A stretch of 64,000 nt of DNA. Origin: a virus (lineage: Duplodnaviria; Caudoviricetes). Shown piece after piece: positions 4,884-57,462 of the stretch; within the stretch, counting starts at the first letter, position 1; the number at the start of each line of letters is the position of its first letter. A program made the translations under genes and the position numbers. Where the stretch lies: IMG/VR virus record IMGVR_UViG_3300048881_000780, one strand, 5' to 3'. The notes under the pieces were generated by a model, which had not been told where the DNA came from, ran no database searches, and saw only the letters and a program-made list of their open reading frames with translations.

Positions 4884-5768
4884 ATGAATAGACCTTTTGA
4901 GTTCGTGATTGATAATAGGTTTACAAACGAAGATACTTTTGAACTATACTTATTTGAAGATATTAATTATGACTTCTCTATTGATTGGGGCGATGGATCT
5001 ATTTCCTCAATAAGTAATAATGACAAAAGCTGTTCCCACGTCTATAAAAATAAAAAAAAATATACTATTAAAATTTGGGGAAATGTAGAGGTCCTACATT
5101 TTTCTTGGAAATCTAAAAAACAAATAGTATACGTTTTAGACTTAGGTGATTGTAACTGGAAATCTTTAAATGCCATGTTTCTTTCATGTTCAAATCTTAT
5201 ATCATTTCGTGGAGGGGTTACCTCAAGTGTTGCGGATATGAGTCGAATGTTTTACAGATGTTCTTCATTACATGATTTAGATTTAAGTAGCTTTAATACT
5301 TCTAATGTGACCAATATAAATTCAATGTTCAGTGGTTGTACATCTCTAGAGAATTTAAATCTATTAAATTTTAATACATCAAATGTATTAACTATGAGTT
5401 TTGTTTTTAATAAATGTTCTTCTTTGTTGAATTTAGATTTAAGTAGTTTTAATACATCCAAGGTGACTAGCATGGATTTAATGTTTAATAGATGTACATC
5501 TTTAGATAATTTAAATCTATCTAGCTTCAATACTTTAAATGTTAGTGATATGACAGGTATGTTTAGACGTACTTTTTCAATAAAGTACCTAGATCTAACT
5601 AACTTTTGCTTTAACTCTCCAAAAATTCAAAACTTTTGTAAACTTGGCCCTAAAAAAATAATCGTCAAAAGACCATATAAGAAGAAGTATTTTAAGAAAG
5701 ATGAGAATGTATTCTCTAGTTCTATAGATATTTCTAGTAACTTATGGATAAATTCACTGACCGACTAA
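4884..5768 (+). CDS. BspA/DUF285-type LRR protein with PKD-like N-domain (~6 repeats)
   Basis: IDWGDG...H.Y...YTI.I.G; LDLSSFNTSNV..M..MF repeats; C-terminal NLWINSLTD. Confidence 0.85.
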   Translation: MNRPFEFVIDNRFTNEDTFELYLFEDINYDFSIDWGDGSISSISNNDKSCSHVYKNKKKYTIKIWGNVEVLHFSWKSKKQIVYVLDLGDCNWKSLNAMFLSCSNLISFRGGVTSSVADMSRMFYRCSSLHDLDLSSFNTSNVTNINSMFSGCTSLENLNLLNFNTSNVLTMSFVFNKCSSLLNLDLSSFNTSKVTSMDLMFNRCTSLDNLNLSSFNTLNVSDMTGMFRRTFSIKYLDLTNFCFNSPKIQNFCKLGPKKIIVKRPYKKKYFKKDENVFSSSIDISSNLWINSLTD

Positions 5769-5785
5769 AAAACCTATTTACACTC

Positions 5786-5802
5786 ATAACGCTTCGTGTT
5801 AA
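5786..5802. promoter_or_regulatory. 17-bp palindromic operator
   Basis: ATAACGCTTCGTGTTAA upstream of the AAA+ gene. Confidence 0.65.
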
Positions 5803-5822
5803 AATATTAACAAGGAGTTTCT

Positions 5823-6755
5823 ATGACAAAAAAAGCATCACCTAATAAGGTAAAAAGCACAAAAACATTTAAAATTGGAGAAGTTGAACTTCCTGTTAGA
5901 GAGGGGGATTCTACTTTTGTTCCAAAGATTAATGAGGCATTTTACTTCACAGAAGTATCGCATTGTATTGCTCAAGATATTGTTGAAAATAAGAGAGTTC
6001 TATTAACTGGTCACTGTGGAACAGGAAAGACCTCTAATCCACAGCAGATTGCTGCGAGGATTAATCAACCTGTTACTAGGATCAATTTAAATGGTCAGGC
6101 CACAATTGGTGACCTTGTAGGGTTTTGGTCTGTAAAAGGTGGTGAAACTGTTTGGATTGATGGTGCGCTCCCGATGGCAATGAAAGAGGGACACTGGTTA
6201 ATTTTAGATGAAATTGACTTCGCAGAACCAGCAATTCTCTCAATTTTAAATGGCGTACTTGAAAAAGATGCACCACTAGTTTTAAAAGAAAAAGGAACTG
6301 AGATTGTAAGACCTCATAAAGATTTTAGAATTTTTGCTACGGCCAATACCGTTGGTGTTATGCAAGAGTTTAGATTCCTATATCAGGGAGCAAATATCTT
6401 AAATGAGGCATTTATAGATAGATGGAGAATCTACTTTGTAGATTACCTAGAACCTGATCAGGAAGTAGATGTCCTGATTAAGACTCTAGGACTAGAAGAG
6501 AAGAGAGATAAGGTAGAAAAGGGTATTAGAAGTGCCGTAGAGGTCGCTAATATGGCCAGAAGAGCTTTTGAAGAAGAAACTCTATCATGTACCTTTTCTA
6601 TGCGAAAACTGACTGATTGGGTCGAATTAATGTTTAAATATAAGGATCCAATTAAGGCCTGTAATATGGCCATTAAAAGTAAAGTCAGTCGCGTTGATGG
6701 AGATGCCATTTCTTCGATCATTCAGCGTGTATTAGAAGATTGTGAACAAGATTAA
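5823..6755 (+). CDS. CbbQ/NirQ/CobS-type (MoxR clade) AAA+ ATPase
   Basis: Walker A GHCGTGKT, Walker B LILDE, FATAN sensor, AFIDRW. Confidence 0.9.
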   Translation: MTKKASPNKVKSTKTFKIGEVELPVREGDSTFVPKINEAFYFTEVSHCIAQDIVENKRVLLTGHCGTGKTSNPQQIAARINQPVTRINLNGQATIGDLVGFWSVKGGETVWIDGALPMAMKEGHWLILDEIDFAEPAILSILNGVLEKDAPLVLKEKGTEIVRPHKDFRIFATANTVGVMQEFRFLYQGANILNEAFIDRWRIYFVDYLEPDQEVDVLIKTLGLEEKRDKVEKGIRSAVEVANMARRAFEEETLSCTFSMRKLTDWVELMFKYKDPIKACNMAIKSKVSRVDGDAISSIIQRVLEDCEQD

Positions 6756-6790
6756 ATTTCCCCTCAGTGGGAAAGAAACCCCTTAAGTAG

Positions 6791-6820
6791 AGGGTCTGGC
6801 ATTACGTCAGGCCCTTTATT
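6791..6820 (+). terminator. Intrinsic terminator
   Basis: AGGGTCTGGC-ATTAC-GTCAGGCCCT followed by a T-rich tract. Confidence 0.6.
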
Positions 6821-6835
6821 TTAAAGAGTTTATAT

Positions 6836-8263
6836 ATGACAACTAGACCTTTCAAATTCAAAATTAAAGTAAATAGAGATGAGATATTCGCATTTAATTT
6901 ATCAAAAGAAGAAGTATCATATGACTTCACTATTGATTGGGGTGATGGGGTTAAAGGCTCTGTAAATAGTAAATCCTGCAAGTGTGAACATACCTATAAA
7001 AAGGGTGGCGAATTTACTATTACAATTAATGGTAATGTAGAGTCTATAAACTTCGAGAATGAGTCAAAAAGGCTGATTATAGAAGTTCTAGATTTAGGCG
7101 ATTGCAACTGGAAGAGTCTTTATTTTATGTTTGGCAATTGTTCTAACTTGACCTCATTTTCTGGTGGAATAACTAATCGAGTTGTAGATATGGCCTGTAT
7201 GTTTTACGAGGCTAGCTCTCTTAAGAGATTAGATTTATCAAGCTTTGACACCTCTAATACTCGGGATATGCAATCTATGTTTGCAGAAATCAGCTCTTTA
7301 GAGGAATTAGATATATCAAATTTTGAAACATCTAATGTGACGGATATGCGCTTTATGTTTTCAGGAGCTACCTCTCTTGAAAAATTAGATCTATCCAGTT
7401 TTGATACTTCTAAAGTAACAGATATGAGAAACATGTTTAATAGAGCTAACTCTCTAGTAAATTTAGATTTATCCAGCTTTGATACTTCTAATGTTAGAAA
7501 TATGAGCTATATGTTTAATGAATCTAGCTCACTTAAGGATTTAAATTTATCAAATTTTAATACATCTAAAGTCACGGATATGAGTCATATGTTCTATGGA
7601 TCGTGTTCATTTAAGAATTTGAATATATCAAATTTTAATACCTCTAAAGTTCAAGATATGAGTCATATGTTCTATGAAGTTAGCTCTCTAGTGGATCTAG
7701 ATTTATCCAGTTTTGACACTTCTAATGTTATAAACATGAGCTACATGTTTAGTGGAGCTACAGATTTAATAAATCTAGATATATCAAGTTTTGAAACCAC
7801 TGAAGTTGAATATATGAAATGTATGTTCCATGGAGCTAGCTCTATAGTAAGCTTAGATTTATCAAGTTTTAATACATCTAAAGTGACGAATATGAGTTAT
7901 ATGTTCTGCTACACTACCTCTTTAAGAAATTTAGATATAACTGGTTTTAGTACTTTTGAGGTAAAAGATATGAGCTTTATGTTTCATGGAGCAAGTTCTC
8001 TAGTGAATTTAGATTTATCAAATTTTGATACTTTTAATGTTTCTGACATGTCTAGTATGCTCGCTGGTGCGACATCTATTTCAAGTTTAGATTTAACAAA
8101 TTTTAACTTTGATGAAGTTGATGTGAATATGTTTGAGCTTAATGGTCCTCTAGAAATTATCGTTAAGAAGAAATTTAAAGAAAAATATTTTAAAGATAGC
8201 GAGAACGTAATATTTAAAACACTTAATTTAGTGTCCAACTCATGGATAGATGCTATTTCTTAA
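6836..8263 (+). CDS. BspA/DUF285-type LRR protein (~13 repeats of 26 aa)
   Basis: IDWGDG domain, many LDLSSFDTS.V.DM..MF repeats; C-terminal NSWIDAIS. Confidence 0.9.
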   Translation: MTTRPFKFKIKVNRDEIFAFNLSKEEVSYDFTIDWGDGVKGSVNSKSCKCEHTYKKGGEFTITINGNVESINFENESKRLIIEVLDLGDCNWKSLYFMFGNCSNLTSFSGGITNRVVDMACMFYEASSLKRLDLSSFDTSNTRDMQSMFAEISSLEELDISNFETSNVTDMRFMFSGATSLEKLDLSSFDTSKVTDMRNMFNRANSLVNLDLSSFDTSNVRNMSYMFNESSSLKDLNLSNFNTSKVTDMSHMFYGSCSFKNLNISNFNTSKVQDMSHMFYEVSSLVDLDLSSFDTSNVINMSYMFSGATDLINLDISSFETTEVEYMKCMFHGASSIVSLDLSSFNTSKVTNMSYMFCYTTSLRNLDITGFSTFEVKDMSFMFHGASSLVNLDLSNFDTFNVSDMSSMLAGATSISSLDLTNFNFDEVDVNMFELNGPLEIIVKKKFKEKYFKDSENVIFKTLNLVSNSWIDAIS

Positions 8264-11907: not shown

Positions 11908-11995
11908 AAAAAAGGGACTCTTTCGAATCCCTTTTTACACACACATACACACACATAAGGAGTAGGAGATTTGACCTAGAAGTGGTCGTTCCTAC
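11908..11995 (-). ncRNA. Putative 88-nt GU-rich sRNA, copy 1
   Basis: TTGACG-17-TATTAT promoter; 5' hairpin; UCCUU(AUGUGUGUGU)2 linker; GNRA-loop terminator with U-tract; duplicated at 26318-26405. Confidence 0.75.
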
Positions 11996-12013
11996 AAGTT
12001 TATAATATCGGCC

Positions 12014-12030
12014 CTAACGCAGGCCGTCAA
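12014..12030. promoter_or_regulatory. 17-bp operator overlapping the -35 of the GU-rich sRNA promoter
   Basis: CTAACGCAGGCCGTCAA. Confidence 0.65.
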
Positions 12031-12189: not shown

Positions 12190-12218
12190 TTGACGCAATA
12201 TGTTAACATTGGTACTAT
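12190..12218 (+). promoter_or_regulatory. Sigma70-type promoter with embedded operator
   Basis: TTGACG-17-TACTAT; operator TTGACGCAATATGTTAA at 12190-12206. Confidence 0.8.
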
Positions 12219-12224
12219 AGTATT

Positions 12225-12351
12225 AAGAAATGAGCTGGCCACACACCAGCAATACTCACACTTTCAAAGAATTTAGAAAGAGTTTTTCTTGGCTTAAATA
12301 AGGGCACACTTAGGATTTGTGACCCTGGGATACACACCTGGGGTCACTTTT
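12225..12351 (+). ncRNA. Putative ~127-nt CA-loop sRNA (partner 1)
   Basis: Promoter; GCTGG-CCACACA-CCAGC hairpin; terminator GTGACCCTGGG-ATACACA-CCTGGGGTCAC-TTTT; no sizeable ORF. Confidence 0.65.
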
Positions 12352-12555
12352 AAGATTGGTACAAAATGAAGAATCTAATTATATTTTCCCTAGCGATAAT
12401 TTTAACATTTACGATATTTTACAAAGTATCTTGTCCAGTGGTGGAAATGGTCAAGGGAACAAGTTATGAAAATTTATTCTCCCCTTGCCTTAACTACTGT
12501 AAATTTCTAGATAATTTAAATTAAAATACGATAAGCTAATTACAGGAGCTTATTT

Positions 12556-14347: not shown

Positions 14348-14551
14348 TTACAGTAAGAATCCATTTATTTTAAATTCATCTATAATCTCTTGTCTTAAAT
14401 CACTTTCAGTATCTTGACCTAGTATTTTATGATCTAGAATCTTCTTAATATTTTCTCTCTTAAGAGCAATTTCCTTTTCAACGCTCTTAACTTCTTTCTT
14501 TTGTTCCATGGCCGAAGTGTTTATTGCTAGTAATAGAATAAGAATTTTCAT
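14348..14551 (-). CDS. Small putative exported protein
   Basis: MKILILLLAINTSA after a GAGG RBS. Confidence 0.55.
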   Translation of the reverse strand: MKILILLLAINTSAMEQKKEVKSVEKEIALKRENIKKILDHKILGQDTESDLRQEIIDEFKINGFLL

Positions 14552-14591
14552 AACAACCTCATATTGCAGTCTTTTTGTGTGTACATATATT

Positions 14592-14608
14592 TTAACACTA
14601 ACCGTCAA
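14592..14608. promoter_or_regulatory. 17-bp palindromic operator
   Basis: TTAACACTAACCGTCAA. Confidence 0.8.
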
Positions 14609-15944: not shown

Positions 15945-16190
15945 TTATTTAAGGTTATTTATAAAATCCGATATTTTTACATTTGCTTTATTGTTAACAA
16001 AGCTATCAAGAGTTAAGAAATTCGTAATATCACTAGTGTCTAAATCTAGTTTATCGGCAAGAGTTGATTTCGCTAGATTATTATCTTTAAGATATAGGGC
16101 CAATTTCTCTTGTTCTATAAATAGCAACTCATAATTCGCTAGAGAATCCATGAGTCTATTATCTATCACTTTTCCAAGTACACTAGCCAT
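15945..16190 (-). CDS. Possible XRE-like helix-turn-helix protein
   Basis: YLKDNNLAKSTLADKLDLDTSDITNFL. Confidence 0.5.
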   Translation of the reverse strand: MASVLGKVIDNRLMDSLANYELLFIEQEKLALYLKDNNLAKSTLADKLDLDTSDITNFLTLDSFVNNKANVKISDFINNLK

Positions 16191-16779
16191 TATTCCTCTC
16201 TAGCTCCTTGTATATTTTTGAAACGTATTTAATTTGGTGAGAACAGTCATCTAGTCCCTTGTGGGCAGTTCCTACAAACTTCATAGTTTTCTTTGGATCA
16301 ATATCTAAAATACTTTTACCCAAATCAACCATAGTTCTAACATCTCTATAATGTCTAAAGTGAACAGGACACTTAGCTCCAACAGCTTTATAGGCATTCT
16401 CGATCCAAACACAGTCTGCACTTGAACCATTTCCCCATAAAGTAGCGTGATCAACATCGTGCTCTTTTAAACACTCCTGAAACCAATTATTAAAGCGCTC
16501 TAAGACAAATGGTAGTTCTAATCCCGTTTGAATGGCACTAACGAATACTTCGTTAACTGCATCTCTATCTTGAGTGAGCCACCACTTTACAGTCTCTCCA
16601 GCAACATCAAGACCATGTTTAACGGAAGAGGCAGGATCAACAAGCATTGTAAATCTACTTAAGTTCTTTCCTGTTTTTATATTGAACATAATAGCTGAAA
16701 TTTCAATTAATGCTGGTTTATCAGAGTCTCCATCTAGGCACTCTAAATCTATCATACAGTCTAGTCTATTCATCTCCAT
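16183..16779 (-). CDS. DEDDh 3'-5' exonuclease (exonuclease VIII / Rv2179c-like)
   Basis: MIDLECL, WGNGSSAD, RDVRT, H..LDD..HQ. Confidence 0.85.
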   Translation of the reverse strand: MEMNRLDCMIDLECLDGDSDKPALIEISAIMFNIKTGKNLSRFTMLVDPASSVKHGLDVAGETVKWWLTQDRDAVNEVFVSAIQTGLELPFVLERFNNWFQECLKEHDVDHATLWGNGSSADCVWIENAYKAVGAKCPVHFRHYRDVRTMVDLGKSILDIDPKKTMKFVGTAHKGLDDCSHQIKYVSKIYKELERNNG

Positions 16780-17105: not shown

Positions 17106-17717
17106 TTAGGCCACGGCCTTATTATTTGCCATTCGAGCGCAGGCCCTAAGCATCTCACAGTAAATATCAGCAGATAATTCAATATTCTTCTTTACTCCCT
17201 CTGTATCACCAAGAAGCTCGACGGCCTTAAAGGCACTCTCTAAGTGATCTGGGTCCTCTTCTGAGTGAACAATAATGAATTTAGCACATCTCTCTCCATG
17301 AGCATTTCTAACATCTTCTACTAGTTTCTTATCTACGTAGGCCGCGAATCCCTCTAGTGCTAGGGCCCAACCAAATGGTGCAATTCCATCAGATTCTAAA
17401 GCGATTTTTCTTTGAACTTCATATACTTTCTTCGTTTCCATAAGTTCTGGGTAATTCTCTATACTCTCCCCCATTCTCTTGAGATCTCCCATTGCCAGGT
17501 TTTCATGACCCGCTTCTTCATCAGCGTGGGCCAGCCATCTCTTTTTTAATTCTGGAATCTTGGCACATTCACTAAAATGCCTAAGAAGTGATTCCGATTG
17601 AGATGAATAGTAGTAGGTTTGAGCAAGAAACCACTTGTAGACCTCTGGGTTTGTTAAATCTACTTCTCTAACTGTTGCGATCATCTTTTGTACATTCGCT
17701 TCAAGTAATTCTTTCAC
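17106..17717 (-). CDS. Heme-oxygenase-like (iron-containing redox enzyme) diiron oxidase
   Basis: H..EE.GHE, ALEG, H.EED..H ligand pattern. Confidence 0.8.
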   Translation of the reverse strand: MKELLEANVQKMIATVREVDLTNPEVYKWFLAQTYYYSSQSESLLRHFSECAKIPELKKRWLAHADEEAGHENLAMGDLKRMGESIENYPELMETKKVYEVQRKIALESDGIAPFGWALALEGFAAYVDKKLVEDVRNAHGERCAKFIIVHSEEDPDHLESAFKAVELLGDTEGVKKNIELSADIYCEMLRACARMANNKAVA

Positions 17718-17875
17718 TTTGTCTCCTATTTAAATATATGTTAAATAAATACATTTTATGCCAGCTTGTGTAATTATCAAAATACAGGCACTTATGACTA
17801 TTATCATTATAACATTCGTATATAAAAATTGCTTATTTACTGCAAATTTCATTTAGTTAAAGGTATAGTCGCGCT

Positions 17876-19249
17876 ATGAAGAAAACGGTGTCCAATATTG
17901 TATTTAAATGTCTTTTTAAGTTTATGCATTCTCATGGCGTGGATGAAGAAAAACTATTATTAGGAACTGACCTAGAAAAGAGAGACTTTAATAACTTACT
18001 ATCTCGTCAAACTTGGGATACCTATCTTCGGGTATTAGATAATCTAGAGCCATTCTTAGATGATCAGGCCATTGACGAAATTGGACTATACGGAGTAACT
18101 GGACGAGAGTACCAGAAATTAACAAATATCGTATCTGGAATCTTTTCAACTAAGTTACTATATTGGGCCCAATCGAAATTCATGGGCAATTACTTATTTA
18201 ATAATATTAAGTTCGAGTATAAAAAGGATAGTCGAAATTTAGTTTCCTTAGAAATGAGTGTAGAGGGAGAGCCACCGCCGATGTTCTTTTGGAAAGGATA
18301 CGTATCTGTTTATCGGCATTTTCCAAAAATATTCGACAACACTCTATCTTCTAAAGTGGTTCTAACTAAAGTAGATAGTAATACGGCCAGATTTTTAATC
18401 TCCCCTCCAATTCATCAAAGTATTTTTAAGAGGGTTTTATTAACACTGTCTGCACCCTTTAGAGCGAGCAATACTGTTGAACTTCTATCAGAGTTAGAAC
18501 AAAGTAAGCGAGAAGTTTCCGAGTTAAATATGCTCTTATCAGATAAACTTAATGATAAAAGTATTCAGCTTATGTCCCTATCGCACGACCTTTCAAATCC
18601 TCTTTTTATTATAACGGGACTAAAAAAGAGAATCGATCGAGCAAAGAGTTTAGAAGAAGTTAAAGGTTATATAGAGAGCATAAATTCTCATGCCACTATC
18701 ATGGCACATACGATAAAGCAGACTAGAAGTTTTCTAGAAAAAGAAAATAATGGTTATAAGAAGTGTCCTATTTCAATGAAGAAGCTAATTGATGACTCTA
18801 TTCAGTTAACGCAAGCTAGAGCAGATAAAAAAGAAATTGAGCTGAAGATTAATGTAGTTGACTCTACAATTTTAGGTGACGAGAGTGCTATCTCTTGTTC
18901 GGTTATAACTAATATTATAACTAATGCCATAAAATTTTCTAATACAGGTGGGACTATAGAAATTAATAGTTACCCCAAGTATCATGATGCCATTCTTGAG
19001 GTTATAGATTTTGGTACAGGGATGGATGAAGAAACAAGAAAGAGAATTCAAAATGGGGACAAAGTTATTTCCAAAGAAGGTACTGTAAAGGAGCAGGGTT
19101 CAGGCTTTGGAATGATGATAGCTAAGAATATAATTGAAAAATTTGACGGAACCATGCATATTGAAACTAACGAGAATATCGGAACAAAATTTACAATTGT
19201 ATGGCCACAAGCTATGCAACATCTTTCAAATCTTCACCCTTCGATGTAG
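17876..19249 (+). CDS. Soluble sensor histidine kinase
   Basis: SHDLSNPL, NIITNAIKF, DFGTG, GSGFG; no TM segment. Confidence 0.9.
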   Translation: MKKTVSNIVFKCLFKFMHSHGVDEEKLLLGTDLEKRDFNNLLSRQTWDTYLRVLDNLEPFLDDQAIDEIGLYGVTGREYQKLTNIVSGIFSTKLLYWAQSKFMGNYLFNNIKFEYKKDSRNLVSLEMSVEGEPPPMFFWKGYVSVYRHFPKIFDNTLSSKVVLTKVDSNTARFLISPPIHQSIFKRVLLTLSAPFRASNTVELLSELEQSKREVSELNMLLSDKLNDKSIQLMSLSHDLSNPLFIITGLKKRIDRAKSLEEVKGYIESINSHATIMAHTIKQTRSFLEKENNGYKKCPISMKKLIDDSIQLTQARADKKEIELKINVVDSTILGDESAISCSVITNIITNAIKFSNTGGTIEINSYPKYHDAILEVIDFGTGMDEETRKRIQNGDKVISKEGTVKEQGSGFGMMIAKNIIEKFDGTMHIETNENIGTKFTIVWPQAMQHLSNLHPSM

Positions 19250-26317: not shown

Positions 26318-26405
26318 AAAAAAAGGGACTCTCTCGAATCCCTTTTTTACACACATACACACACATAAGGAGTAGGAGATTTGACCTAGAATTGGTCGTT
26401 CCTAC
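26318..26405 (-). ncRNA. Putative 88-nt GU-rich sRNA, copy 2
   Basis: Near-identical to 11908-11995 including the promoter; changes confined to loops and linker (GAAA to GAGA tetraloop). Confidence 0.75.
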
Positions 26406-26423
26406 AAGTTTATAATATCGGCC

Positions 26424-26440
26424 CTAACGCAGGCCGTCAA
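26424..26440. promoter_or_regulatory. 17-bp operator overlapping the sRNA -35
   Basis: CTAACGCAGGCCGTCAA. Confidence 0.65.
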
Positions 26441-26567: not shown

Positions 26568-26596
26568 TTGACACAATGTGTTAATAAATATAAACT
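26568..26596 (+). promoter_or_regulatory. Promoter with embedded operator
   Basis: TTGACA-17-TAAACT; TTGACACAATGTGTTAA at 26568-26584. Confidence 0.75.
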
Positions 26597-26602
26597 AATA
26601 TT

Positions 26603-26728
26603 ACACAAACGGAACGAAAGTACCGCTGTAGACGCACTCTTCGAGTTTTTCCCAACAAAAAGAGAGCACACATTCACACAATAAGGAAAGGCCCTCTCAC
26701 ACACACATCACACAAGGGGGCCTTTTTT
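26603..26728 (+). ncRNA. Putative ~126-nt CA-rich sRNA (partner 2)
   Basis: Promoter; GCACACATTCACACAATAAGGA; terminator AAAGGCCCTCT-(CA-rich 17-nt loop)-AGGGGGCCTTTTTT. Confidence 0.65.
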
Positions 26729-27052
26729 ATTAAATCCTCAAATTTTTCATCAATGATTTCTAGTAAGCTCTAAATAGCTCTCTAATGCACTTGGAATAAT
26801 AATTATCTAGTAACGAGATAGTTCTCTTAAATGACGTGAAAAGGCCTTTAAATAGCTCTAAGTATATACCTAGTGATGTTTCTAAGCTTATTCTTCTAGA
26901 TATACATACCTAGCTAATTAAATTGAATAAAACTGCCAATAAATTCAAACGTTTATAGATATACCTAGTTTTAGGTATATAAAGTAAAAAGTGATCACAA
27001 TATACACATATCTATTATATCTAAATGAATATACTAAGCTCTCTTGGTTTCA

Positions 27053-27113
27053 GATTATACCCGATAGGGTATAATCCCTTTAAAAAGCCTTGTTTTATAC
27101 CCTATCGGATATA
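27053..27113. promoter_or_regulatory. Paired palindromic operators upstream of the RHH gene
   Basis: GATTATACCC-GATA-GGGTATAATC and the inverted near-copy TATACCCTATCGGATATA. Confidence 0.6.
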
Positions 27114-27166
27114 GTTTTCTGTTATCTAGGTATGAAAACTTATAATTAATTCATAGAGGTGTTCAT

Positions 27167-28084: not shown

Positions 28085-29440
28085 TTAGGCAACCATCTTT
28101 ATGTTATTTTCTTCTCTTAGTTTTAAAATATGCTCACAGATTTTTCTTACAATAACATAAGCATGAGAGTAAAGAATCGACTGTCCTAGTCCCTCATGAG
28201 CAACAGTATCGGAAATTCCTCTAACTAGGTCAGCGGGAATTCCCTTTATTCTGGCGTGTTCTACTGGATTAAATAATCTTATATCTCCGCTGATCCCATC
28301 TTGGTAATGTGGGTTTGAAATTTGTCTCTTAGAATAATTTCTTGGAATAACTCCAACTAATTCACATTCGTCACTAACAAAGTTTCTCTTAAATCCTCTA
28401 CCCTTTTTTAAATTCTCAACTTCTCTTTTTTGAAAGTACTCTCCGCTAAAGAATCTATCTTCATTTTTATCTAAGAGCTCGCCAATATTATTAAATTCTC
28501 TCTTAGGTAGAAAATCTTTAATATTATCAAAGTTAAAACCATTGGCCATCTTTTCGCTTATAGCGACAAACCAGTATCTCTTTCTCTTTTCAAGAGAGTT
28601 TGAGTGTGTTTCATCTAGATTAATTTCAAAAACTCTATAACCAAGTCTTCTGAGTTCTGACTTAAATAGAACGTAGGTGGCAGAAGTTCTCGCTTGAATA
28701 ACATTTTCAGAAATAATTATTGAAGGATTAGTTTTGTAGATAACTTTAATGGCACCAAAGATAGCAGTTGAATCTTTTGAGTGATCCTCTGCCTTTTTGA
28801 TTTTATTACTAGTTTTTCCAGCTGGAGAGTGTCCCGTACAAGGTAGCGAGAGTGATAGTATATCTAGAGAGCTCAAATCTCTAGTATCACAATCTTCTAA
28901 ATTACCTTGAATAACCAGAGAGTCCTCACTTAGAGTTACATTATTCTTTTTCGCGGCCTGAAGATACTTGGCCTCTCTCTCCATAATTAGAGATACTTTA
29001 CTATTTATATTGGAGTCTTCCATCGCTTTATTAATAGCGTGAGCAGATACTCCAATTCCGTAACAAAGAGCTCCCTCGTGAAGAGTTTCATTATTAAGTA
29101 GTCTATAATCACGCTCTCTTTTGGCCATTCCCTCTGCGTGTCTTCTAATTGTTATTTTTCCGTCAAACACTCTAGCAGTTATTAATTCATCAACTTCAAA
29201 GATATCTAGAAGCCATTTTCCACAAAGATCAATAATAGCAACGCTCTCACCATTTCTTCTCTTGCCAGATACTTTTCTCTTACCCTTTCTATCGAGAATT
29301 AGAGAAATCTCATCATTAGTTACTTTCATCGAGTACTTAGAGTCTCTTTTGAACCCACCTGAATCGAGTTTTACCCCCTCAAACCATGCCCTACCGCCCT
29401 TTGCAGTTAATGATACTCTAGTGTTGATAATCTCTCTCAT
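28085..29440 (-). CDS. C5-cytosine DNA methyltransferase with N-terminal extension
   Basis: SLPCTGHS (PC motif), SENV, R.RYW, RLF.P.EHARIKG, LGQS; GGAG RBS before ATG 29440. Confidence 0.85.
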   Translation of the reverse strand: MREIINTRVSLTAKGGRAWFEGVKLDSGGFKRDSKYSMKVTNDEISLILDRKGKRKVSGKRRNGESVAIIDLCGKWLLDIFEVDELITARVFDGKITIRRHAEGMAKRERDYRLLNNETLHEGALCYGIGVSAHAINKAMEDSNINSKVSLIMEREAKYLQAAKKNNVTLSEDSLVIQGNLEDCDTRDLSSLDILSLSLPCTGHSPAGKTSNKIKKAEDHSKDSTAIFGAIKVIYKTNPSIIISENVIQARTSATYVLFKSELRRLGYRVFEINLDETHSNSLEKRKRYWFVAISEKMANGFNFDNIKDFLPKREFNNIGELLDKNEDRFFSGEYFQKREVENLKKGRGFKRNFVSDECELVGVIPRNYSKRQISNPHYQDGISGDIRLFNPVEHARIKGIPADLVRGISDTVAHEGLGQSILYSHAYVIVRKICEHILKLREENNIKMVA

Positions 29441-29501
29441 GTGGATCTCCTTAGAAATGTATATCTTTCTATACAAAATATGTATAAATACACACACAAT
29501 C

Positions 29502-29518
29502 TTAACACATTGCGTTAC
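29502..29518. promoter_or_regulatory. 17-bp palindromic operator
   Basis: TTAACACATTGCGTTAC upstream of the C5 MTase. Confidence 0.7.
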
Positions 29519-29586
29519 CATTGTAAATACAAATAAAAGAAATGTTTTCTAATCAAGTACTCGAAGTAACTTGATTAAAAATAGTA

Positions 29587-29721
29587 ATATTACGATTGTT
29601 TATATTACGATTGTTTATATTACGATTGTTTATATTACGATTGTTTATATTACGATTGTTTATATTACGATTGTTTATATTACGATTGTTTATATTACGA
29701 TTGTTTATATTACGATTGTTT
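29587..29721. repeat. Perfect tandem repeat, 9 x 15 bp (ATATTACGATTGTTT)
   Basis: Direct reading. Confidence 0.95.
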
Positions 29722-30021
29722 AATTAGTTTGAATTTCTTAAAACTTAAAACATCGGAAATTGCTTCATCAAGATCATACTCTTCATTTAAAATCTCCAAT
29801 AGCCTTGATTCTGTGTAATTATTACCAAAAGATCCAGAGCACCACTCTCTAACTTCTCTTTCTGTAATAAGATTAAGTTGTTTATCTTCATCATCGGAAT
29901 ACTTATTAAAGCAAGAAGAGCAGTAATCTTTCTTGTCTTCCCTGTTTTCATAGTAATCAACGCTATCAACAATGTGAGAACCACAAATGTCACATAAGAG
30001 CTTGTCTTCTTCGTTATACAT
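29710..30021 (-). CDS. Zinc-binding hypothetical protein
   Basis: CDICG...YCSSC; the stop lies inside the tandem repeat. Confidence 0.7.
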   Translation of the reverse strand: MYNEEDKLLCDICGSHIVDSVDYYENREDKKDYCSSCFNKYSDDEDKQLNLITEREVREWCSGSFGNNYTESRLLEILNEEYDLDEAISDVLSFKKFKLIKQS

Positions 30022-36702: not shown

Positions 36703-36984
36703 ATGTTAGACGTAAAGAAAAAGAATGAAAGACTAATTTTGACGCAAAAGCGTTTAACTCCAAACAAGAAACTTTCCTTATTAATTGGCAGTGATACAAG
36801 GACTAAGTCAAAGATAATGAAAGATGTCTTCAACTACATTAAAATTAACAAGCTTCATGACTCTCTTGATAGAAATTATATTATTACAGATAAGAAACTT
36901 AAATCTATCGTAAAGAAGAATAGGGTCTCTATTAGAAGTATTCACGTTCAAGTTTTTAAAAACACAACACAAGAAGGTATTTAG
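36703..36984 (+). CDS. SWIB/MDM2 domain protein
   Basis: P..KLS.LIG....K..IMK.VFNYIK.NKL.D...R..I.TDKKLK.I. Confidence 0.75.
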   Translation: MLDVKKKNERLILTQKRLTPNKKLSLLIGSDTRTKSKIMKDVFNYIKINKLHDSLDRNYIITDKKLKSIVKKNRVSIRSIHVQVFKNTTQEGI

Positions 36985-36985
36985 G

Positions 36986-37228
36986 ATGGGTTCTTTTGAT
37001 ACAGTAAATATTAAGTGTCCTTGGTGTGGCGAGACTCATGGTGAACAAATTAAATCTGGCCCTTGTGATTTTATAACTAGAGACTTAGAGAGTGCTCCTT
37101 CAGTATTAAAAGTAGGGGTATCTAATTACCCTATTGAGTGTGATAATTGTGGAGAAAAGTTTCAAGTAAAAGTTCAATCAATCGCGAGAGTATATAAGTG
37201 TAAAGCCGATGATGATTTGATGGATTAA
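36986..37228 (+). CDS. Zinc-ribbon protein
   Basis: MG.FD.V..KCPWCG...Q.K.GPC...CDNCG. Confidence 0.7.
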   Translation: MGSFDTVNIKCPWCGETHGEQIKSGPCDFITRDLESAPSVLKVGVSNYPIECDNCGEKFQVKVQSIARVYKCKADDDLMD

Positions 37229-57189: not shown

Positions 57190-57206
57190 TTGACGCATCA
57201 TGTTAA
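57190..57206. promoter_or_regulatory. 17-bp palindromic operator
   Basis: TTGACGCATCATGTTAA. Confidence 0.8.
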
Positions 57207-57237
57207 TATTTATGTACACAACACAGGGAGACTATAT

Positions 57238-57462
57238 ATGAAAAAGACATTAATCATTATTTCACTATTTCTTAATTGTAATAATATTATTGCTCAAGAA
57301 GTCGTATCAAATAACTGTAGCGTTATAACTGTTAAAAAGGTTCCATATAAAGAAGTTTTAAAAAGGAGAAAATTTATTCCATCGGAATATATTCAATTTG
57401 AAAATAGCCATCAAGAAGTAAATTACTTCGTCTTTGAGTCAAAGAATAAGCCACTATATTAA
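57238..57462 (+). CDS. Small exported protein
   Basis: MKKTLIIISLFL; GGGAG RBS. Confidence 0.6.
   Translation: MKKTLIIISLFLNCNNIIAQEVVSNNCSVITVKKVPYKEVLKRRKFIPSEYIQFENSHQEVNYFVFESKNKPLY

Follow-up and report, generated by a model that had tools for sequence, protein, structure and literature searches.

The 64,000-nucleotide stretch of viral DNA considered here (Duplodnaviria, Caudoviricetes; IMG/VR record IMGVR_UViG_3300048881_000780, below referred to as the window) carries, twice, a compact cassette with the make-up of a small RNA (sRNA) gene. The two copies lie on the minus strand at 11908-12030 and 26318-26440, and each has a C/A-rich neighbour that would be transcribed in the opposite direction. 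With modest confidence, we read each cassette as an independent gene for a trans-acting, base-pairing sRNA of ~88 nt that belongs to a new family, and its divergent C/A-rich partner as, most likely, a decoy for that RNA. The window is part of a 361,129-bp contig of 32% G+C, and the low-GC element that hosts it looks jumbo-phage-like or megaplasmid-like.

A first-pass annotation of this DNA had described a duplicated unit of ~125 bp composed of a promoter, a hairpin, a seed and a terminator, and all of these elements are present, in a full unit of ~123 bp. Reading along the minus strand, the promoter of copy 1 consists of a -35 box TTGACG (12030-12025), a 17-nt spacer and a -10 box TATTAT (12007-12002), and the predicted start of transcription is the G at 11995, ~6-7 nt past the -10 box. 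From there, a 34-nt 5' hairpin (11995-11962) with an outer GUAGGA/UCCUAC and an inner GACC/GGUC stem is followed by the unpaired seed UCCUUAUGUGUGUGUAUGUGUGUGU (11961-11937), which can be written as UCCUU-AUGUGUGUGU-AUGUGUGUGU, and by a terminator with its U6 tail (11936-11908; AAAAAGGGAUUC-GAAA-GAGUCCCUUUUUU). Copy 2 has the same layout, with its promoter at 26440-26412, a predicted start at G 26405, the hairpin at 26405-26372, a seed that is shorter by one GU unit (26371-26349), and a terminator with a GAGA loop and a U7 tail (26348-26318). In both copies the terminator takes the general form AAAAAGGGAUUC-GNRA-GAGUCCCUUUUU, with 12-13 bp and a U6-7 tail, and the unpaired stretch of 23-25 nt opens with the anti-Shine-Dalgarno (anti-SD) pentamer UCCUU before continuing into two AU(GU)n decamers. 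The earlier description of this seed as a pair of GU-type decamers holds for copy 1, while in copy 2 the second decamer reads AUGUGUGU. We infer transcription, and the ends of the ~88-nt product, from the promoter and terminator sequences.

Within the window, there are exactly two occurrences of the 29-nt promoter, with 0.00 expected, and the 19-nt seed occurs twice, even when three mismatches are allowed, against 0.01 expected. The predicted transcripts fold with minimum free energies (MFE) of -27.1 and -28.0 kcal/mol for copies 1 and 2, respectively (z -4.0 and -4.2), and none of 200 shuffled sequences (0/200) was as stable. In both copies, the seed UCCUUAUGUGUGUGUAUGUGUGUGU is left unpaired in the MFE as well as the centroid structure, and with a stable hairpin on either side it has the arrangement typical of base-pairing sRNAs. 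The copies differ from one another in four places: a C/A change in the loop of the first hairpin, the linker, where copy 2 has one GU unit fewer and one A extra, the GAAA/GAGA tetraloop, and the U6/U7 tail. That such changes are confined to loops and linker and preserve the GNRA tetraloop had been put forward as support for the strand and the structure. All four differences do fall at unpaired positions, yet the support that this lends amounts to p~0.06 only, since about half of the positions are unpaired to begin with.

A stronger argument comes from the identity profile between the two loci. The promoter is identical at 35/35 positions (100%) and the transcript at 84/88 (95.5%), whereas identity drops to 46% in the 28 nt past the terminator, 39% in the spacer and 36% in the divergent partner unit. 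Identity stops within a few nucleotides of the -35 box on one side and of the U-tail on the other, and the conserved block is exactly promoter to terminator. Because the profile ends this sharply at both borders, the cassette appears to be under constraint.

Could the cassette instead be a cis-acting leader of the genes that follow it, with its terminator acting as a regulated attenuator for the operons 11741->9707 and 26261->25831? Genes on the same strand do come next, 167 nt past copy 1 and 57 nt past copy 2, and the Cys/Val codons in AUG-UGU-GUG-UGU resemble those of a leader peptide. The genes in question are unrelated, however: copy 1 is followed by a set coding for a 174-amino-acid (aa) protein, for which a protein search gave no homologue, a DUF285 protein and a 172-aa protein, and copy 2 precedes membrane-type open reading frames (ORFs) of 45 and 95 aa. 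Moreover, at both loci a palindrome-bearing, promoter-like site separates the terminator from the gene (TTGACAATATGTGTTAA at 11767-11751, and TTAACATGAGGTGTTAT/TATAAT at 26298-26277). Neither fold offers an antiterminator that would compete with the terminator, the MFE structure being the same as the centroid structure, and the sharp end of identity right past the U-tail does not fit a leader either. The AUG inside the seed is preceded by CUCCUACUCCUU and has no Shine-Dalgarno (SD) sequence, and a 2-nt indel alters its frame between the copies, for which reasons we regard the cassette as non-coding. Altogether, an attenuator is highly improbable. The related notion that the cassette codes for a tiny Cys/Val-rich peptide, MCVCMCV(CKKGFERVPFLFV), is scarcely credible: although the AUG opens a frame of 20 codons in copy 1, CUCCUACUCCUU ahead of it is the opposite of an SD, the same indel makes the frame of copy 2 stop after 7 codons, and the frame passes through the terminator hairpin. 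What is found instead, namely a promoter, a terminator, no coding potential and conservation limited to the unit, are the generic marks of a stand-alone sRNA gene. The first-pass annotation had called the RNA stand-alone, and with a self-contained unit running from promoter to terminator, followed by unrelated genes that have promoter-like sequences of their own, we accept the cassette as a putative stand-alone sRNA gene.

To which family could this RNA belong? At gathering thresholds, a search of the whole window against Rfam gave 0 matches. A permissive search (E<=10) near copy 1 returned only chance-level alignments to Atu_C8, AniS, L20 leader and SraB. The model of GcvB (RF00022) stayed below its gathering score in the window and was absent even from the E<=10 matches near copy 1. 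A similarity search with the cassette DNA in distant mode against PLSDB plasmids and INPHARED phages gave no match, and exact and gapped pattern scans for the cassette in IMG/VR, in GTDB genome contigs (one genome per species) and in JGI metagenome contigs gave nothing. A covariance model, R1, that was built from the two window copies recovered just these two in the window, at 121.1 bits for copy 1 and 121.6 bits for copy 2, and nothing in 58 kb of flanking sequence of two distant relatives, which likewise contained no (GT)4 tract and no promoter palindrome of the kind described below. Within the data searched, the sRNA is a new family that is confined to this element.

Of all features, the complementary RNA next to the cassettes is the most telling. 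Divergent units start 130-160 bp upstream of each copy, and the better matching of these, partner unit 2 (26568-26728, plus strand), has a promoter TTGACA-17-TAAACT (26568-26596) that matches the consensus at 10/12 positions and contains the perfect palindrome TTGACAC-AAT-GTGTTAA. Its predicted RNA of ~126 nt (26603-26728) folds with z -4.3 and exposes two stretches complementary to the seed: site A, CACACAUUCACACAAUAAGGA (26667-26687), in the linker that precedes the terminator and is left unpaired, and site B, CACACACACAUCACACA (26698-26714), which is the 17-nt loop of the terminator itself (GGCCCUCU-(17-nt loop)-AGGGGGCC, stems 26690-26697 and 26715-26722, then U6). The ~430 nt beyond it are free of ORFs in all frames, and of any trace of the peptide encoded at locus 1. 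Partner unit 1 (12190-12352, plus strand) has a promoter TTGACG-17-TACTAT (12190-12218), again with a perfect palindrome, at 160 bp from the sRNA promoter, and its RNA would run from ~12225. It contains a hairpin with a CCACACA loop (12234-12250), an anti-seed-like stretch AUAAGGGCACACUUAGGA (12298-12315) just ahead of the last hairpin, and, as this last hairpin, a strong one with an AUACACA(C) loop (12319-12348) followed by U4 only. A 52-codon ORF (12366-12524) follows, and partner 1 may be the leader of an mRNA rather than a free RNA.

When the unpaired region of the sRNA was scanned for duplexes against both strands of the window, leaving out the antisense strand of the sRNA genes, which is trivially a perfect match, the best two sites were both located in 26651-26740 on the plus strand, at -30.1 and -29.8 kcal/mol (window mean -9.2, sd 3.8), and the next best site anywhere reached -25.4 kcal/mol. 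Cofolding, in which the cost of unfolding each RNA is included, gave partner 2 a free-energy gain (ddG) of -22.5 kcal/mol, the best of 977 windows, and partner 1 one of -16.1 kcal/mol, with 6/976 windows as good or better (top 0.7%); as background, 976 windows of 128 nt were taken from the two strands without overlap (mean -6.3, sd 3.2). On the opposite strand, the partners came to ddG values of -0.4 and -3.9 kcal/mol. That both immediate neighbours of the sRNA copies should rank within the top 0.7% by chance is very unlikely. In the full-length cofolds, each RNA retains its hairpins and the unpaired stretches pair with one another. Apart from the 22-nt seed, where site A matches 20/22 positions of the exact complement (z 7.1), the sRNA and the reverse complement of partner 2 show no similarity, and the complementarity is thus targeted. 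Partner 2 as a decayed inverted copy of the sRNA gene was considered as well, and is ruled out by the same observation.

A pair of neighbouring, divergent and partially complementary RNAs brings to mind type I toxin-antitoxin loci of the IstR-1/TisB, OhsC/ShoB and OrzO/ZorO kind, with the G/U-rich RNA in the role of the antitoxin: by pairing with a long, structured 5' leader, it would block the translation of a divergent mRNA for a small membrane peptide. IstR/TisB-type loci have a divergent, non-overlapping arrangement, and the layout found here matches it. At locus 1, the partner leads straight into the 52-codon ORF, which codes for a hydrophobic N-terminal helix, the U4 tail of the preceding hairpin is short, and the sRNA would pair ~50 nt upstream of the ORF start, with the ddG in the top 0.7% given above. 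Next to copy 2, too, there is a hydrophobic ORF of 45 aa (26261-26124). However, the best complementarity is found at locus 2, precisely where the partner lacks an ORF, and the 45-aa ORF lies on the strand of the sRNA past its terminator, where it has a promoter-like site to itself and does not figure among the good pairing sites. Only at locus 1 does a leader that the sRNA would pair with precede a small hydrophobic ORF, the small ORFs match no family, including any toxin family, and the 52-codon ORF has a poor SD. We therefore consider a toxin-antitoxin pair to be quite unlikely. As to the small ORFs with a hydrophobic helix that adjoin the two modules, there are three, at 12366-12524 (+, 52 aa), 26261-26124 (-, 45 aa) and 26118-25831 (-, 95 aa), and they show no similarity to one another.

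If the sRNA indeed acts in trans, which mRNAs could it reach? The first-pass annotation had proposed a translational repressor of CA-rich, SD-containing leaders, which is a plausible mechanism, and had named sites before the start codons at 57238 and 36986. Such sites do exist, ACACAACACAGGGAG (57216-57240, plus strand) running into ATG 57238 of a 74-aa protein with a signal-like N-terminus (cofold ddG -18.3 kcal/mol), and ACACAACACAAGAAGG (36962-36988, plus strand) running into ATG 36986 of an 80-aa zinc-ribbon-like protein (ddG -12.7 kcal/mol), a doubtful candidate; both are candidate targets only, the top rank of 57238 being within chance. To these can be added UAUGUACACACAAAAAG...AUAUGAGG (14551-14592, minus strand), which leads into ATG 14551 of a 67-aa protein (ddG -20.6 kcal/mol). 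By cofolding, the leader of 14551 outranks all other mRNA-type windows and comes right after partner 2, and that of 57238 is also among the best windows after partner 2. Ranked by duplex energy among 163 SD-bearing starts, 57238 comes first (-23.3 kcal/mol), 14551 second (-22.5 kcal/mol) and 36986 twelfth (-19.6 kcal/mol). Among the C/A tracts listed for the window, the decamer ACACAACACA occurs in two places only, each directly before the SD of a small gene: at 57216-57225, followed by GGGAG and ATG 57238, and at 36963-36972, followed by AGAAGG and ATG 36986. The proteins encoded behind the candidate leaders are small and without a family match. It should be noted that any RNA with an anti-SD will pair with any SD. 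Furthermore, C/A tracts occur at a fixed distance past the promoter palindrome, in the form ...GTTAA-N9-10-(TGT)ACACA, at 57190, 14592 and 2907, and because of this fixed spacing they may be promoter or initial-transcript sequence and not sites for the sRNA. Three promoters of this kind, in which the palindrome is followed by TGTACAC(A), are seen at 57190-57225 (+), 14608-14572 (-) and 2923-2890 (-), and mRNAs made from them would begin C/A-rich. The combination could represent a second promoter class, or be the source of the CA-rich leaders.

Several points weigh against the reading of the cassettes as genes for a base-pairing sRNA with a decoy next to each, and are best considered together. 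The candidate mRNA targets are not enriched beyond chance, with 57238 at z -2.8 (mean -12.4, sd 3.95), as is expected for the best of 163. The energy ranks also overstate specificity somewhat, because (GU)n and (CA)n are of low complexity and G-U wobble makes the seed promiscuous. The strand and ends of the partners are drawn from consensus promoter and terminator matches only, and partner 1 is without a proper U-tract. Finally, no homologue was found outside this contig that would provide an independent test of covariation or conservation, and the two copies are too similar to yield compensatory changes.

Some of these points would equally suit an explanation in which RNA-RNA pairing plays no role, the (GU)n tract serving either to titrate an RNA-binding protein or, at the level of DNA, as a site of slippage or Z-DNA (GT/CA), a bidirectional terminator or insulator, or a recombination site, with the complementarity as a by-product of low complexity. 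The lack of statistical enrichment among mRNA targets is in line with this, as is the different length of the tandem 10-mer tract in the two copies, which is what slippage-prone DNA would show, and the A-tract/U-tract symmetry of the terminator, which could act both ways. In addition, tracts of (GT)4 or longer are restricted, within the window, to the sRNA units, partner 2 and the region upstream of a methylase gene. Conversely, no plus-strand gene reads into either terminator, and the promoter and the 5' hairpin are conserved as strictly as the GT tract. The pairing with partner 2 goes past the CA repeats, with AUAAGGA opposite UCCUUAU, and the complementary segments of both partners sit at unpaired or loop positions in the predicted folds. 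We therefore hold a function that does not involve pairing to be unlikely.

Returning to the sRNA and its putative decoy, the features above can be combined into a mechanism. The sRNA would be made from a variant of the element's own promoter type, and its transcription would be ended by a strong intrinsic terminator. Its UCCUU and (GU)n would then pair with C/A-rich sequence that precedes purine runs of the AAGGA/GGAG type, so that element mRNAs with C/A-rich leaders by the SD (14551, 57238 and perhaps 36986) would be repressed at translation initiation. Partner 2 may titrate the sRNA as a decoy, in other words as an anti-sRNA or sponge, and we read it this way because it presents a near-perfect target mimic in an unpaired linker and a second C/A tract in the loop of its terminator. 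Once this decoy is made, the target mRNAs would be de-repressed. For partner 1 the predicted pairing is weaker, and it may be an mRNA leader ahead of a small-protein gene. A more elaborate proposal, which we put forward only tentatively and with clear doubt, is that of a repeated two-gene RNA switch: a conserved sRNA with a G/U seed and its own fast-evolving, divergent, C/A-rich decoy, expressed from differently built promoters, such that the ratio of sRNA to decoy would set the translation of element genes with C/A-rich leaders. If this were true, it would constitute a hard-wired, local sRNA/sponge circuit that times the gene expression of a giant phage or plasmid. To our knowledge, no paired multicopy sRNA/anti-sRNA cassette has been described so far.

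Very little work has been devoted so far to regulatory RNAs in giant phages and megaplasmids. Provided that they are transcribed, the cassettes would represent a new sRNA family with an explicit design, an anti-SD followed by a repeated (GU)n seed, and with a probable antagonist encoded beside each copy they would offer a compact model in which sRNA/sponge control on a mobile element could be tested directly. The combination of C/A-rich leaders and G/U-rich regulators, as in enterobacterial GcvB, may then have had an independent origin in a low-GC element. If not transcribed, they are merely a repeated promoter-terminator cassette of local interest.

GcvB, which with Hfq represses many mRNAs at C/A-rich sites near the SD, is ~200 nt long; the present RNA, by contrast, is ~88 nt, carries an explicit anti-SD in its seed, is multicopy, resides on a low-GC element, and does not match the GcvB model in sequence or in structure. 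What the two have in common is a single-stranded G/U-rich seed between structured domains, present here in both copies. GcvB acts on C/A-rich sequences that lie within ribosome-binding sites or ahead of them; AgvB, a prophage RNA, imitates a site of this type, and SroC serves as a sponge for GcvB (PMC4474525). AgvB is carried on a horizontally acquired element, and partner 2 looks like a C/A-rich target mimic of the same kind, site A providing, by predicted pairing, the stretch complementary to the sRNA seed. The putative decoy differs from both AgvB and SroC in being encoded back-to-back with each sRNA copy and not elsewhere. The comparison with GcvB is one of analogy in mechanism, not of membership.

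In architecture, the closest analogy is with the streptococcal csRNAs (cia-dependent small RNAs), of which a genome has several highly similar copies (PMC3091779). They are ~100 nt long, with a stem-loop on either side of the unpaired anti-SD, a layout found in both cassette copies; the low-GC Gram-positive setting is shared too, and one csRNA gene is plasmid-borne (PMC3091779). Membership fails on three counts, however. There is no Rfam match, the unpaired UCCUUAUGUGUGUGUAUGUGUGUGU is without CAU, CAC or CAA, so the anti-start-codon feature is missing, and the promoter is TTGACG-17-TATTAT with CGGCC-N8-GGCCG, in which no CiaR-type direct repeat was seen, although this is a weak test. The (GU)n tract of the present RNA is moreover absent from csRNAs. 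Another RNA with the same order of elements is AniS of Neisseria (RF02274), which aligned weakly in the covariance search over a 5' hairpin, UCCUCUU, AUGUGUGUGUGU and a terminator; the score was 17.5 bits (E 2.4) where the gathering threshold is 50, AniS comes from organisms of an unrelated group, and the two are alike in layout only. The LhrC RNAs use pyrimidine-rich UCCC motifs in loops and single strands, in contrast to the one UCCUU of the present RNA, in which (GU)n dominates the pairing region. LhrC1-5 of Listeria monocytogenes form a multicopy sRNA family of a low-GC Gram-positive that binds the SD region of its targets (PMC4132741). Other differences from LhrC are that the present RNA has no Rfam match and that its copies are dispersed, each with a divergent partner.

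The promoters of the cassettes and of their partners are related, both being versions of a motif that recurs through the window. This palindrome, TTRACRY-N3-RYGTYAA, has 9 perfect copies against 0.01 expected, and ~30 copies when up to 2 mismatches are allowed, the majority of which coincide at least in part with a promoter-like -35 hexamer upstream of a gene (example sites are 12190, 13026, 26568, 30791, 36398, 50477, 57190, 60512 and 62367). It looks like the element's standard promoter/operator architecture. The promoters of both partners match this motif perfectly, and those of the sRNAs (TTGACGG-CCT-GCGTTAG) are 2-mismatch versions. The latter carry, in addition, a perfect palindrome CGGCC-N8-GGCCG inside their spacers (12009-12026 and 26419-26436), the surrounding TTGACGGCCTGCGTTAG being the 2-mismatch version of the general palindrome. 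These are the only 2 matches in the window, with 0.00 expected, and the palindrome is a candidate regulator-binding site. As sRNA and partner promoters are thus related but distinguishable, they would allow for separate control. As a rare marker for this promoter palindrome, GGCC was rejected, since it is 3.6-fold over-represented in the window. Its 170 occurrences, against 47 +/- 7 expected from dinucleotide shuffles, are unusual for a sequence of 32% G+C that encodes a C5 methylase.

Among the genes of the window, those for DNA processing include an NAD-dependent ligase, a type IA topoisomerase and two DNA methylases, and a VWA protein of the CobT-like type is encoded together with its AAA+ partner, of the MoxR/CbbQ type. 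Others code for a histidine-kinase-like protein, an Rv2179c-like exoribonuclease and many DUF285/BspA leucine-rich-repeat proteins, and no tRNAs were found in the window. The best relatives of the window proteins are ~30-43% identical and come from uncultured phage-like contigs and large Firmicute plasmids, those of the CobT-like protein reaching at most ~43% identity. A scan of IMG/VR for relatives of the topoisomerase found nothing. At the level of DNA, the window otherwise matched only one Logan assembly, of the public run SRR35531919, in a 10.8-kb contig that ends inside the repeated sRNA cassette. The same contig also breaks near the first of three tandem 177-bp repeats (893-1423), which lie within an ORF that is truncated by the left edge of the window. 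Further arrays, with a period of 78 bp (26 aa), are found within the DUF285/BspA genes at 5200-8119.

The region between the two sRNA copies holds accessory genes (16183-16779 on the minus strand, and 17106-19249), and the accessory products encoded there are the Rv2179c-like 3'-5' exoribonuclease, a haem-oxygenase-like di-iron enzyme and a soluble histidine-kinase-like ATPase, the last with no response regulator nearby. Beyond copy 2, ~10 perfect tandem copies of a 15-bp unit, ATTACGATTGTTTAT, form an iteron-like array (29589-29737) just upstream of the promoter region of the gene for a 478-aa C5 cytosine methylase (28085-29521, minus strand); this promoter region carries the element's palindrome and a GTGTGTGT tract at 29497-29490. 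Past partner unit 2, within a non-coding stretch of ~430 bp, positions 26850-27140 are rich in repeated words of the TATACCTAG type and contain two longer inverted repeats, TATACCCGATAGGGTATAA and TATACCCTATCGGATATAG, which together may form a cluster of binding sites such as a centromere or an origin.

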